Below, in pieces: positions 11,219-14,908 of a stretch of DNA of 37,591 bases. The notes beneath the pieces were generated by a model. The model was not told the DNA's origin. It ran no database searches and was given only the letters and a program-made list of their open reading frames with translations. Where the stretch lies: positions 1-37,591 of the forward strand of contig JBHLSH010000034.1 in the NCBI GenBank assembly GCA_048881705.1, given 5' to 3'. A program made the position numbers and the translations under genes. This stretch comes from Candidatus Heimdallarchaeota archaeon (GTDB lineage: Archaea; Asgardarchaeota; Heimdallarchaeia; Hodarchaeales; Hodarchaeaceae). Numbering within the stretch: position 1 is the first letter of the stretch; each line of letters starts with the position of its first letter.

Positions 11219-11248
11219 AGATTCCTATCACAGAAAAAGCGACATTGA

Positions 11249-13078
11249 CTACAGATATTCCACTTCTAGTTGGCCTGAGCTGTCCTCAATGCTTTTTGCT
11301 GCTGTAACCAGAATATAGGGCACCTCACGTTGGACAAGGTAATCGAGAATCATTGAAAATCGACTGGGATCGTAATCCAGCGTAACTTTGTCCAAGCAGA
11401 AAATTGGATAATCCTTCACGTATTCCTCACGTCCTGCAAGCATGCAGATTAAAGCAATCGTTATCCGCTCGGAATCACTCAATGATTCGATAGGCTGATC
11501 AATGGTAGCGCCTCTCCTTTTTCGCTTCACAATAAGGCGAAACTCGTTATCGATTTTGATTTCTTCGAAATCTTGAAACTTTAGTCGAGAATAAACGAAC
11601 TTGATCTGAGCGTTGAAGTTTTCAAGAACTAGCATTTTAACAATTTTTTCCCTAGATTCAAGATGTTCTTGAAATATCTCGTAAAATTCATGCTCGGCCT
11701 GAACCAGATCCGCCTGGTCCATTCGATCAGATTTTTCACCAATCTGCTTTTCTACGTGTTCAATTTTTCCCGAAATCCGTTGGATTTTTGCGTCAAGGTC
11801 AGTAATCAATTCGATTTTAGTTTTTAAATCGTCGTCGATCGATTTTTCTAGAATTTTCAATTCTGATGATTTTATCTCCAAGGTTTTTTCACTGGAATCT
11901 ATCTCCTCCTCCTTTTCCTGCATCTCACGGTTAAGACGACGGATTTCTTTTTGAGCTTTGTTTATCCTAAGTTGATTGTCATTTTTTATTCGGTGAACTT
12001 GTAATTCAAGATCTTCCTTTCTACGCTCCAAATCATCAATCTGAAATTCATATTCCCTCATTCGCTTGGATTGGTGCGAATCTTCGACCAGTAGTTTGTC
12101 TTCTCGATTTTTCGCATTTTTTTCGCTATAGGGGCGTCCGCAAATTATACATTTAGACAAATCCATTGAACGACTTAGAGAAATCCAGTTCCTCACCTCT
12201 TTAATTGCCTTCTCTGTTTCTCGTTTCTCTTGTTTGACTTCTTGAAGGAACTTCCGTGTTTCTTTTGTTCGGGTTATCAGATGGCTTATTTCCTGCTCCA
12301 CCCGAGGATGATCATTCATGAAATTCTTGATTTCCTCCTCCATCCGATCTGAGAGCTTTTGTTGATCGCGTATTCTCGCCTTGTCTAGTTTAATTATATC
12401 TTGAGCCGCCTCGATTTTGTTTTTTAGGTTGGCAACTTCTTTCGTGAGCTCTTGGAAACGTGCCTCCGAATCCTTAAGGGATTGAATTTCCTCAAGGTTA
12501 ATTTTTGGGAGGGATCTTCTCTCTTTTTCCGTATTACTAAGCTCTCGCTCCAGATTCGATCGTTCTTTTCTTAAATTCTCAACGTCCGACTCATAAACTA
12601 AATAAATTCGGAGATCTTTCTTTAAACTTGAAAGACGATTCTTTATGACTGATATGAGATAAGAATAATACTTTACATCTGAGTATTGGGTAAGAAGTTC
12701 TTCTAAATTTCTTCCTGTGGTAATGGAAGTTATAAGTTTGTTGTCTGGAGTTGCCAAGCTAAAAAGATTCACTTTCTGGTTCTCGGGATGGAAGGTACCT
12801 CCAACCACCGTGATCTTTTTACCGTCAATATTAAAATGTCTCTCTGTTTTCCCATAACCTTCCATATCTAGTTTGACTGAACTTGATTTTGTGAATAGAT
12901 TGAAATAGTATCTTCTCTTTGATATTTTACTATCAGGCATATTAAGAAGTTCGATTCCACGAACAAATGATGATTTCCCAATCGCGTTAGGTGCTGTAAT
13001 CAAGTTCTTGCCCTGTCGGAAGTTAAGAGTAAGTTCATCTATGCCCCCAATATTTTGTAATGTTATAGTAAGTGTCAT
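11249..13078 (-). CDS. Archaea-specific SMC-related ATPase (Sph-like) with central CxxC zinc hook (609 aa)
   Basis: N-head TLQNIGGI…APNAIGKSS; two coiled-coil arms around CIICG (Cys310/313); C-head SLSDSERITIALICMLAG…PIFCLDKV…DPSR, resembling the haloarchaeal Sph pattern LSESE…LAG…PFxLLDS as I recall it. Confidence 0.85.
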   Translation of the reverse strand: MTLTITLQNIGGIDELTLNFRQGKNLITAPNAIGKSSFVRGIELLNMPDSKISKRRYYFNLFTKSSSVKLDMEGYGKTERHFNIDGKKITVVGGTFHPENQKVNLFSLATPDNKLITSITTGRNLEELLTQYSDVKYYSYLISVIKNRLSSLKKDLRIYLVYESDVENLRKERSNLERELSNTEKERRSLPKINLEEIQSLKDSEARFQELTKEVANLKNKIEAAQDIIKLDKARIRDQQKLSDRMEEEIKNFMNDHPRVEQEISHLITRTKETRKFLQEVKQEKRETEKAIKEVRNWISLSRSMDLSKCIICGRPYSEKNAKNREDKLLVEDSHQSKRMREYEFQIDDLERRKEDLELQVHRIKNDNQLRINKAQKEIRRLNREMQEKEEEIDSSEKTLEIKSSELKILEKSIDDDLKTKIELITDLDAKIQRISGKIEHVEKQIGEKSDRMDQADLVQAEHEFYEIFQEHLESREKIVKMLVLENFNAQIKFVYSRLKFQDFEEIKIDNEFRLIVKRKRRGATIDQPIESLSDSERITIALICMLAGREEYVKDYPIFCLDKVTLDYDPSRFSMILDYLVQREVPYILVTAAKSIEDSSGQLEVEYL

Positions 13079-13266
13079 TATGTCTCATCGCGCCATTTTA
13101 AAGCATAGGATTGAAGCTTTTTAAAGAGGGGATCAGAAGTTTTTAAGGAAGTTGCGGGCAGCGAACCCAGTTCTTTCAAATGAAGAACTAGTTGTTCCTC
13201 TACGTGGCTGAGAAGCTTTTTCTTTTTCTCTGACAACCTTTCGACCTCTTCCTTTCTTTTCGGCAT
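13078..13266 (-). CDS. Small basic helical protein (62 aa), translationally coupled to the SMC-like gene
   Basis: Its TAA overlaps the SMC ATG (TAATG at 13076-13080 on the minus strand); lies 12 nt after the upstream gene. Confidence 0.65.
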   Translation of the reverse strand: MPKRKEEVERLSEKKKKLLSHVEEQLVLHLKELGSLPATSLKTSDPLFKKLQSYALKWRDET

Positions 13267-13278
13267 GTTTGTGCCTCT

Positions 13279-13635
13279 TTAACGCAGGCTTAATAGGACC
13301 GAGAATCGTTTTTTCTCTAACTGGTCAAGTGTGGTGAAAAACTCTGGATCATCAATCGCGCTATCCATTGCATCAAGACCTTCCCTTTCGACATGGAATG
13401 CCACTTTTGTCAAGTCTGAATCGTTCTCCAAGTCATCCAGGCGTACAGGTTCTAATACGGAGATTTCAATGTTGCCCCTTTCCTTTCGCCACTCAGTCAA
13501 TATCAATGCTAAGGTTTTTCCACAATTACGCATTGTAAATACGCCCTCACTAATCTTTTCAACAAAAAGCTCAGGATATTGCGTATAAAATCGACTCCAC
13601 TTTCTACGTAATTGGGTTGTACGCGTGTACACCAA
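13279..13635 (-). CDS. Hypothetical protein (118 aa), first gene of the SMC-like operon
   Basis: Same strand, 12-nt gap to the next gene, plausible alpha/beta composition; TTG/GTG start. Confidence 0.65.
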   Translation of the reverse strand: MVYTRTTQLRRKWSRFYTQYPELFVEKISEGVFTMRNCGKTLALILTEWRKERGNIEISVLEPVRLDDLENDSDLTKVAFHVEREGLDAMDSAIDDPEFFTTLDQLEKKRFSVLLSLR

Positions 13636-14113
13636 GATAAATGCTATAAACTACACCTCCAATTGCCACTATCCGACGTTCAGACCGATTTTGGAAGGAT
13701 GCGGTACGTTCCACCTTATAGGTTAATATTTTTGCCCACTTGGGAAGGAAACAGTTTGTCGACACCGAGAAATCAGATTTATCTTTCCAGATCTATGAAG
13801 AGGAACTTGGCAATCGTAAGGTTAAGAGAAATATGGATTAAAATGTCGGTTCATGACACTGTATAAGGAAATCTCATCCCAATTTTAAACGTATACTGTT
13901 TTCATCCTGGGAAAAGGGAGTGATTTCCATAAGGTTGCTTCCAACTTTAAATGCCATTCTTTTTTTTTCTGCACATTAAGGACATTTGCTATTGCTTTTC
14001 AATGGCATAAACCATAAAAGATATTTATTTGATTTTGCGTGGACTTCATTCAGCTAAGGATTTTTTAATGCCATAATCGCGGTTTTAGGGCGTTTTACGG
14101 GAATAGTTGCCAT

Positions 14114-14908
14114 ATGAATAAGGAAAGCGAAAAATACATCGATATCCACTGCCATCTTCCCGTGAACTACTTTTATCGAAAAATCGACACATTGATGGAA
14201 CAGTATAAACTCAAGGGAATCCAAAAAATAGTCTCGATGAGCCAGGATCATAAGGAAGCAAGAAGGTCCTTAGAACTCGCACACAAGTTTCCTTCTTGTA
14301 TAATTCCGACTCTCGGAATTCACCCTTGGAAAGCTCACAAGAAACTCAACGAACTTGAGATTTGTGATGAAATACTGGGACAAAACCCAAATATTCGTGT
14401 CTTGGGAGAAGTTGGGCTAGATTACCACTTTATAACTCAGCCAGCACGGTATACAAGTCAAAAGGAAGTGTTTAATCACTTTCTCAAATTAGCTGAACGT
14501 AGGCGACTTCCAATGATGCTCCATGTGAAAGGAGCAGAGAGCGAAGTTGCAGATTATATCGAAACCAGTAGTTTACCTGGAAACTTTTTTTGTATTCACT
14601 GGTTTTCGGGGCCAAGCCCTATCCTAGATCGCCTAGCCGATCTTGATTGTTATTTCTCCTGTGGTCCAGCTTTAGATTATTCTCCAAAACATCAGATGGT
14701 TGCAAAAGTTGTCCACCTCGATCGAATCCTAACCGAATCTGACGGAAATGTCAAATACCGAGGTAAAGTTGGACACCCTGGGCTTATGCCAAAGGTAATC
14801 GAGGCCATTTCCTCCCTCAAAAAACGCGATAGAGATGAGGTTCAGGATTCAGTTCTCAAAAATAGTTACAGATATCTCAAGATAACTATTCCCGAATTTT
14901 TGGAATGA
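14114..14908 (+). CDS. tatD: TatD family metal-dependent DNase/hydrolase
   Basis: DIHCHL, GIHPW, GEVGLDY, LHVKG, IHWFSG and LTESD motifs. Confidence 0.93.
   Translation: MNKESEKYIDIHCHLPVNYFYRKIDTLMEQYKLKGIQKIVSMSQDHKEARRSLELAHKFPSCIIPTLGIHPWKAHKKLNELEICDEILGQNPNIRVLGEVGLDYHFITQPARYTSQKEVFNHFLKLAERRRLPMMLHVKGAESEVADYIETSSLPGNFFCIHWFSGPSPILDRLADLDCYFSCGPALDYSPKHQMVAKVVHLDRILTESDGNVKYRGKVGHPGLMPKVIEAISSLKKRDRDEVQDSVLKNSYRYLKITIPEFLE

Follow-up and report, generated by a model that had tools for sequence, protein, structure and literature searches.

Of all branches of the SMC superfamily, the archaea-specific SMC-related proteins (ASRPs) are understood least. The family, which Yoshinaga, Nakayama and Inagaki defined in 2022, takes in Sulfolobus ClsN (coalescin) as well as Halobacterium Sph1 and Sph2; a zinc hook is a known trait of nearly all members, and the defining authors found no consensus among the genes that flank them (PMC9389158). 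Accessory subunits have been described only as the haloarchaeal pairing with RdfA: Haloferax requires both Sph3 and RdfA to form rods, and members of the two families lie next to each other in about 80% of cases (Schiller et al. 2024, PMC10869688). Here, we analyzed an ASRP operon from a Candidatus Heimdallarchaeota archaeon of the order Hodarchaeales (GenBank assembly GCA_048881705.1, contig JBHLSH010000034.1, positions 1 to 37,591; this whole stretch of 37,591 nucleotides is called the window below), in which the gene for a 609-aa ASRP is preceded by two small genes, p118 and p62. Both small genes are conserved and syntenic with the ASRP gene, and the ASRPs of this clade have exchanged the catalytic Glu of Walker B for a Lys. 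We favor, with a probability of roughly 60%, the reading that the operon encodes a vertically inherited three-subunit complex that binds ATP, hardly hydrolyzes it and serves as a DNA bridge or scaffold in a housekeeping role.

In most respects the large protein looks like its described relatives. It shares with them a length of ~600 aa, an N-terminal Walker A, a C-terminal signature and Walker B, arms of ~160 aa and a mid-chain CxxC motif, and, like other members of this archaeal family, it coexists with SMC and Rad50 in one genome. It differs in having Lys for the Walker B Glu, as is the case throughout the Hodarchaeales clade, and in having two dedicated small genes ahead of it, where the family paper saw no flanking consensus (PMC9389158). 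An ABC-type head, an antiparallel coiled coil and dimerization through a CxxC hook are also shared with Rad50-Mre11 and with LmuB of Lamassu; unlike these, the operon has no nuclease or effector partner, and the profile scores of the protein against them are far under its ASRP score.

Results

Layout of the operon

The operon and its motifs are as follows.

13279-13635, minus strand: p118, a 118-aa open reading frame (ORF) for an ASRP-associated small protein (from the ORF list)
13078-13266, minus strand: p62, a 62-aa ORF for a microprotein with a basic N-terminus and a predicted helix-loop-helix (from the ORF list and a reading of the junction)
11249-13078, minus strand: ASRP, a 609-aa short-armed zinc-hook SMC-like ABC ATPase (from the match to NF045487)
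12968-12994, minus strand: Walker A (P-loop) APNAIGKSS, residues 29-37 of ASRP (motif read)
12140-12151, minus strand: CxxC zinc hook CIIC, mid-chain, residues 310-313 of ASRP (motif read)
11468-11482, minus strand: ABC signature LSDSE, residues 533-537 of ASRP (motif read)
11387-11404, minus strand: Walker B IFCLDK, residues 559-564 of ASRP, with Lys564 at the position expected for the catalytic Glu (motif read)
11234-11238, minus strand: a run of five T (T5) 11 nt past the ASRP stop codon (sequence read), possibly an oligo-T terminator of the archaeal type that ends the operon

The TAA stop of p118 is followed, after 12 nt, by the ATG of p62, and the p62 stop and the ASRP start share the sequence TAATG. 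From head to hook, each arm of the ASRP measures about 155-165 aa. An earlier annotation made from the letters of the window (the original prediction) had described three ORFs with a 12-nt gap and a TAATG overlap, the motifs APNAIGKSS, LSDSE and LDK with a mid-chain CxxC, arms of about 150-200 aa, a Walker B lacking the catalytic Glu and no adjacent Mre11/SbcD or ScpA gene; all of these descriptions proved accurate, the hook being CIIC, the residue in place of the Glu being Lys564, and no Mre11/SbcD or ScpA gene being found among those adjoining the operon.

p118 and p62 are conserved and always precede an ASRP gene

When 60 relatives were searched by sequence, p118 turned up in 14 of the 21 other genus members, with 42-46% identity (95% for the nearest relative), and no match was obtained in any other genus. 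A p62 homologue lies directly after p118 in all 14 of these loci, and in the 13 whose contig extends further the ASRP gene follows in turn; in the remaining genome (G019) the ASRP gene is on another contig. The four genomes of the genus without an ASRP match yielded no p118 either. The same order of p118, p62 and ASRP was seen in 12 of 12 named Hodarchaeota-type loci for which upstream DNA was present. Thus the worry voiced with the original prediction, that the small ORFs might not be conserved beside homologues of the large gene, is dispelled, since both stand before ASRP in the genus and in the Hodarchaeota-type loci. Across the genus, the small ORFs are conserved at 35-46% identity with their frames kept, and nine residues of p62 are invariant (E23, L30, K31, L33, S35, P37, L51, W58 and R59). 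Compared with the nearest relative, the ratio of nonsynonymous to synonymous substitution rates (dN/dS) is 0.07 for p118, 0.21 for p62 and 0.035 for ASRP; all three genes are under purifying selection.

A profile built from the p118 sequences of the genus reached further, matching, in three further Asgard families, the ORF that immediately precedes ASRP (E 1e-7 to 4e-5). Against 1.84 billion protein representatives, this profile retrieved only 35 cluster representatives, nearly all of ~120 aa, and the four metagenome places recovered for three of them all lay directly upstream of an ASRP gene. The synteny survey that had been proposed as a check gave the same picture on a larger scale: in an ASRP-motif scan of 185,579 species genomes, every match to the p118 family was directly upstream of an ASRP gene. 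One member of 223 aa is a tandem duplication of p118, while no fusion of p118 with p62 occurred among the 35 representatives. Neither p118 nor p62 matched any model in Pfam, NCBIfam or PADLOC at E up to 1. Since p118 and p62 are conserved and syntenic with an SMC-like gene, a multi-subunit SMC-like complex is the best reading of the operon, and the two small proteins are probably accessory subunits of the ASRP.

The exact ends of the small genes vary among relatives. In the window, p118 starts at TTG, with an in-frame TAG (13651-13653, minus strand) six codons upstream; the nearest relative, with its 95% identical p118, has a sense codon at this site and an ATG three codons further up. By their longest ORFs, the p118 homologues have 9-10 extra N-terminal residues, but in most of them an ATG stands at the equivalent position too. 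The product in the window may accordingly be 9-10 residues shorter at its N-terminus. Aligning the upstream DNA across the genus revealed a GGTGG-like motif near the start and no other genus-wide conserved element. As for p62, its homologue in three genus relatives (L014:949-1197, L022:1740-1988 and L011:1382-1624) is readable as a form of 80-82 aa; the basic N-terminal stretch of this form shares ~130 nt, read in another frame, with the 3' end of the p118 gene. In other members of the genus (e.g., L012:1740-1907), a separate 55-aa ORF at this place resembles the start of p62, as if duplicated.

Predicted structures of the small proteins

An AlphaFold2 model of p118, built on a 19-sequence alignment, had a mean predicted local distance difference test score (pLDDT) of 72. 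Residues 1-60 scored above 80 and were predicted to fold as beta-alpha-beta-beta-alpha-beta, followed by helices of lower confidence C-terminal to residue 60; the N-terminal domain is thus modeled as ferredoxin-like. Foldseek returned no match in the PDB below E 1, a wide VIA-align search gave only generic ferredoxin-like folds (Z up to 6.5), and the p118 profile hit nothing among solved structures below E 0.28. A resemblance to DUF7855 from a shape search of the ESM Atlas (TM 0.5 over 62 residues) was set aside as too weak to use. For p62, the model consisted of two helices (residues 3-35 and 46-61; pLDDT 76) joined by a conserved SLP-containing loop, with the second helix ending in the invariant Trp-Arg. 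Foldseek found no fold matches for p62, and feature searches of the ESM Atlas with both proteins scored 0.80 or less, which is the noise level.

We compared these features with the kleisin and KITE partners of SMC proteins (ScpA/ScpB and MukF/MukE). There was no Pfam match, and the monomer models, which are of moderate confidence, contained no winged helix; nothing supports a kleisin or KITE label for either protein, because neither model shows this fold. The suggestion that the small proteins are non-canonical kleisins therefore finds no footing in a p118 model that is ferredoxin-like and a p62 model of two helices. In Mre11, a C-terminal helix-loop-helix grips the base of the Rad50 coiled coil. 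That p62 might grip the base of the ASRP coiled coil as this motif does on Rad50 is an attractive thought, offered as an analogy only.

The large protein is a full-length ASRP distinct from Rad50 and SMC

Against the NCBIfam model NF045487 (ASRP), the 609-aa protein scored 335.2 bits (cut-off 300; E 7.8e-100) over profile positions 1-591 of 593. By its sequence it is a full-length member of an already named family, and near homologues are annotated as ASRP in NCBI records of Hodarchaeales, Hodarchaeota and Heimdallarchaeota metagenome-assembled genomes (MAGs). In an alignment of 15 diverse ASRPs, C310 and C313 of the hook and S534 and E537 of the signature are invariant. Profiles for Rad50, SMC, RecF and RecN gave 12-33 bits, with cut-offs of several hundred to a thousand; among these, SMC profiles scored 15-19 bits (cut-offs 567-729), and the best Rad50 match had 33 bits (E 1.5e-8, cut-off 1000). 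Pfam returned only sub-threshold AAA_15 and AAA_23. Among PADLOC profiles, for which no cut-offs exist, LmuB matched at E 5e-12 (the coiled-coil part) and 1e-10 (positions 8-508 of 611), and PbeC and JetC matched weakly. No solved structure of an ASRP was found, the best matches being SMC and Rad50 heads.

A canonical condensin-type SMC was also considered and rejected, the protein having 609 rather than ~1200 aa, a CxxC hook instead of a hinge and SMC scores far below the cut-offs. The genome of the window encodes this single ASRP, a separate 1216-aa SMC on contig C23 and an adjacent Mre11/SbcD and Rad50/SbcC pair on contig C112. In a maximum-likelihood tree of 25 ASRPs and 4 Asgard Rad50s (ClsN, SMC and LmuB being left out), the ASRPs split from the Rad50s with 99/98 support; the Hodarchaeales clade and, separately, two haloarchaeal Sphs were each recovered at 100/100, on a poorly supported backbone. 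A quick tree had put the Hodarchaeales clade inside the group of ASRPs from AAA+ cassettes (described below); because the careful tree left the backbone without support, no direction of evolution is claimed from it. Identity between the ASRP of the window and the haloarchaeal Sphs is 22-25%, and a word-based protein search with a broad ASRP alignment returned no ASRPs from TACK archaea. Of the label "Sph-type, uncharacterised SMC-like protein" given by the original prediction, what stands is membership of the family that includes Sph and ClsN; a grouping with the haloarchaeal Sph clade has no tree support, and the family had already been named ASRP by NCBI, with the zinc hook a recognized trait (PMC9389158).

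A Glu-to-Lys change in Walker B is fixed across the clade

All 31 readable proteins of the clade (61-97% identity) have Asp-Lys (D-K) at Walker B and keep Walker A, LSDSE and CxxC, and the same D-K is present in 11 of 11 named Hodarchaeota-type loci; Walker A is conserved in 34 of 34 readable homologues. The Glu-to-Lys change is therefore fixed across the Hodarchaeales clade. Elsewhere, most ASRPs read from Asgard archaea, Thermoplasmata, Nitrosotalea, Archaeoglobales and Methanomethylovorans have D-E, one Heimdall family has D-A, and two haloarchaeal Sphs have D-G and D-Q. An H-loop His is absent from every ASRP in the alignment. The Walker B Glu serves as the catalytic base in ABC, SMC and Rad50 ATPases; when it is replaced, ATP is bound and the heads engage with hardly any hydrolysis.

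The operon resembles a wider cassette that also encodes an AAA+ ATPase

Outside the Hodarchaeota-type clade, ASRP genes were found in a larger cassette with the order X protein, AAA+ ATPase, p118-like protein, small protein and ASRP, where X has 250-300 aa and is sometimes duplicated, the AAA+ protein is a single domain of ~240 aa (PF00004) and the small protein has 47-66 aa. At times a histone doublet or zinc-finger gene stands in front and a MazE/AbrB gene behind. Such cassettes occur in MAGs of Heimdall, Promethearchaeota, Thermoplasmata, Nitrosotalea and Archaeoglobales. They share with the operon the homologous p118-like gene (hidden Markov model E 1e-7 to 4e-5), the ASRP gene, the gene order and overlapping junctions; the small proteins of other Asgard cassettes are probably homologous to p62 (hhalign probability 62%, E 7.7e-5). 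They differ in that the operon lacks the 240-aa AAA+ and 250-300-aa X genes, that it encodes D-K where the cassettes mostly have D-E (D-E in seven and D-A in two of those read), and that its chromosomal place is fixed, while the cassette has a patchy distribution over distant lineages. No AAA+ or X gene was found beside the operon in any of 12 Hodarchaeota-type loci, and with the queries used the genome of the window yielded no short cassette-type AAA+ and no X homologue. The D-K clade is the only one without the AAA+ gene, so that D-K goes with AAA+ absence. It is plausible that the three-gene D-K form was derived from the larger cassette by loss.

Some cassettes stand out by their surroundings. 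Full X/AAA+/p118-like/ASRP cassettes were seen on bacterial contigs (Dehalococcoidia MAGs L083 and L084 and Deferrimicrobium MAG L086), one bacterial-assigned cassette contig being a 3.3-Mb chromosome record; either an archaeal cassette was transferred into bacteria or the contigs were binned in error. A Promethearchaeota genome (L061:4574-5041) has a histone-fold doublet gene at the head of its cassette, and in a Heimdall genome (L060:2333-4066) a GmrSD-type restriction gene lies ~2 kb away from the cassette.

Some genomes of the same genus also contain a paralogous ASRP subfamily, preceded by a gene of 111-118 aa and one of 53 aa. Of these two, the longer one is remotely homologous to p118 (hhalign probability 92%, E 5.6e-7). 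In two such loci (L064:4841-8912 and L065:5457-11885), a paralogous ASRP of ~630 aa has the 111-aa p118-like gene and the 53-aa gene ahead of it and is followed by a PAPS-reductase plus 4Fe-4S protein of 573-622 aa and, in L065, also by a 732-aa methyltransferase. This neighborhood recalls DNA-modification systems of the DndC/DndD type.

p118 and p62 lack detectable sequence similarity to RdfA

In haloarchaeal plasmid loci, RdfA (PF21811; 210-251 aa) is encoded directly upstream of the ASRP gene, with a 4-nt overlap with the ASRP start in one locus and a 75-nt gap in the other. The Sph3-RdfA pair thus resembles the operon in that the gene of an ASRP-family protein directly follows that of a small partner and in that the Walker B Glu is missing from both haloarchaeal Sphs read. 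It differs in that RdfA is a single protein, 210-250 aa long and bearing Cys/His motifs, rather than two of 118 and 62 aa, in that the ASRPs belong to different subclades, and in that a function in cell shape has been shown for Haloferax only. PF21811 matched neither p118 nor p62 at E up to 1, and hhalign against an RdfA alignment gave probabilities of 0.1% and 0.15% for the two proteins. Membership of the RdfA family is rejected at the sequence level because of these profile-profile probabilities, and the parallel with rdfA drawn in the original prediction loses its basis in any detectable relation between the proteins.

An RdfA-like gene was also noticed downstream of ASRP on plasmid pMETHO01 of Methanomethylovorans hollandica (L054:5904-6994) and in Methanosalsum natronophilum (L097:6979-7713), matching PF21811 just below the cut-off (E 6.5e-6); in M. 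hollandica, a winged-helix gene comes next. Given these downstream genes, the RdfA-ASRP pairing seems to reach beyond haloarchaea in another gene order. Since neither p118 nor p62 detectably resembles RdfA, ASRPs appear to have two or more partner sets that are unrelated to each other: the Sph and Methanosarcinales branch has RdfA, the Asgard-type branch p118 with p62.

The locus is chromosomally stable

In all 13 Hodarchaeota-type loci, ASRP is followed by the same genes, encoding RidA, PCC, a 330-aa zinc-finger protein, a Ras-like GTPase, a 140-aa protein and a large helical protein. No defence-like genes were found within about 10 kb of the operon, and no relatives on IMG/VR viral contigs. 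We conclude that the three-gene D-K form is vertically inherited and chromosomally stable, because the downstream genes are the same in 13 of 13 loci and neither nearby defence genes nor relatives on viral contigs were found.

Discussion

How the complex might work

If p118 and p62 are subunits as we suppose, one translationally coupled operon would yield a homodimeric zinc-hook ASRP together with two dedicated partners. The ASRP keeps the parts that bind ATP (Walker A, the signature Ser and the Walker B Asp) as well as the CxxC hook and has Lys for the catalytic Glu; for this reason ATP would be expected to close the two heads, with hydrolysis very slow or none, so that the heads would stay closed. 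The complex would then not cycle as a motor but hold DNA or another filamentous partner as a static clamp or bridge gated by ATP, with a role in chromosome organization, as for coalescin, or in cell architecture, as for Sph3. The operon itself would be a chromosomally fixed, vertically inherited and reduced relative of the X/AAA+/p118-like/small/ASRP cassette. A bolder version holds that Hodarchaeales domesticated a mobile SMC-like cassette into a fixed three-subunit complex around a naturally hydrolysis-dead ATPase, in which the kleisin/KITE or Mre11-type partner has given way to two microproteins whose family occurs only beside ASRPs; we regard this version as tentative and rather doubtful.

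Several points weigh against the reading of a static three-subunit complex. Its physical assembly, the bridging of DNA, the cellular role and the lost hydrolysis are what we infer. In particular, mutual binding of the three proteins is presumed, and the loss of hydrolysis through Lys is argued by analogy from general knowledge of ABC, SMC and Rad50 ATPases; another residue might substitute for the missing Glu. With the ASRP backbone unsupported, the AAA+ and X genes may have been either lost or gained. Our survey of genes flanking ASRPs left out the Sulfolobales ClsN loci. Finally, the wider cassette and the paralogous ASRP adjoin genes that look like defence or DNA modification (GmrSD, MazE/AbrB, PAPS reductase with methyltransferase), and because of this a defence ancestry, even a present defence role, is possible.

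Alternative explanations

That last point leads to the most serious alternative, a reduced antivirus or antiplasmid SMC-sensor system of the Lamassu or Wadjet kind, in which the ASRP dimer would sense the ends or shapes of foreign DNA, with the small proteins passing the signal on or holding it back. It draws on the LmuB matches (E 5e-12 and 1e-10) and the weak PbeC and JetC matches, on the related cassettes that lie beside GmrSD, come with MazE/AbrB or an IteA-like AAA+ gene and are patchy in archaea and bacterial MAGs, and on the Dnd-like setting of the paralogous ASRP in the same genus. The locus studied here, however, encodes no nuclease, protease or toxin as an effector, is near-universal in the genus (17 of 20 genomes), holds a fixed place with identical downstream genes in 13 of 13 loci and evolves under strong purifying selection; defence genes are lacking within ~10 kb, as are relatives on viral contigs, and the LmuB scores are tiny compared with the ASRP score. 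Nor were LmuA and LmuC found beside it: the small proteins matched no PADLOC model at E up to 1. We therefore consider such a system unlikely, and the link to Lamassu made in the original prediction a weak one. Somewhat less probable again is an Asgard counterpart of the Sph3-RdfA rod-shape module, that is, an SMC-like cytoskeletal element with a shape partner. The requirement for Sph3 and RdfA in Haloferax rods and their ~80% adjacency (PMC10869688), the position of haloarchaeal RdfA upstream of ASRP, where p118 and p62 stand here, and the D-G and D-Q of haloarchaeal Sphs all speak for it, but homology of p118 or p62 to RdfA is undetectable (0.1% and 0.15%, no PF21811 match) and a grouping of the ASRP with the Sph clade lacks tree support.

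Two simpler explanations we hold to be very improbable. One is that p118 and p62 are chance ORFs in a long 5' leader of ASRP, as their shortness and the lack of a Pfam, NCBIfam or PADLOC family might suggest; yet chance ORFs would not be expected to keep their frames at 35-46% identity across the genus, to show dN/dS of 0.07 and 0.21, to have homologues in other phyla that a profile finds beside ASRP genes, or to give moderately confident AlphaFold2 models. The other, raised with the original prediction, is that the 609-aa protein is simply the genome's own Rad50 with mre11 elsewhere, for which its CxxC hook and weak Rad50 matches (33 bits, E 1.5e-8) could be cited. Against it, the Rad50 score is far under its cut-off of 1000 while the ASRP profile passes its own, and ASRPs and Asgard Rad50s split at 99/98; because a separate Mre11/Rad50 operon (contig C112) and an SMC gene are found elsewhere in the genome, the protein is not its Rad50.

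What the operon adds

The large protein was already known as an annotated ASRP member, so that the gain is moderate, its function being predicted only. The set of two partners, p118 and p62, and the clade-wide Glu-to-Lys change are not described in the literature searched; likewise new are the comparison with RdfA, the modeled folds, the connection to the paralogous ASRP, the co-occurrence of D-K with AAA+ absence and the fixed synteny. p118 and p62 are concrete candidates for the missing subunits of ASRPs, and the lineage-wide Glu-to-Lys change is a natural experiment on whether ASRPs need ATP turnover at all. If the bolder, rather doubtful version of a domesticated cassette is true, it would constitute an SMC-like architecture unrecognized so far, an ATP-locked static scaffold of the chromosome or the cell. 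Its carriers are Hodarchaeales, the archaea currently placed closest to eukaryotes, and the complex would therefore bear on the chromosome- or cell-organizing machinery near the root of eukaryotes.

Other genes near the operon

In the window, the operon is neighbored by genes for RidA, PCC, TatD and MJ1316-domain proteins and for Ras/Arf GTPases. The gene for the TatD-family DNase (14114-14908, plus strand) lies divergently upstream of the operon and is probably not part of the unit. A TatD homologue is found upstream of p118 in most Hodarchaeota-type loci, directly adjacent only in the window, G001, G021 and L072; in the others, a CYTH-like or radical-SAM-like gene lies between the two.

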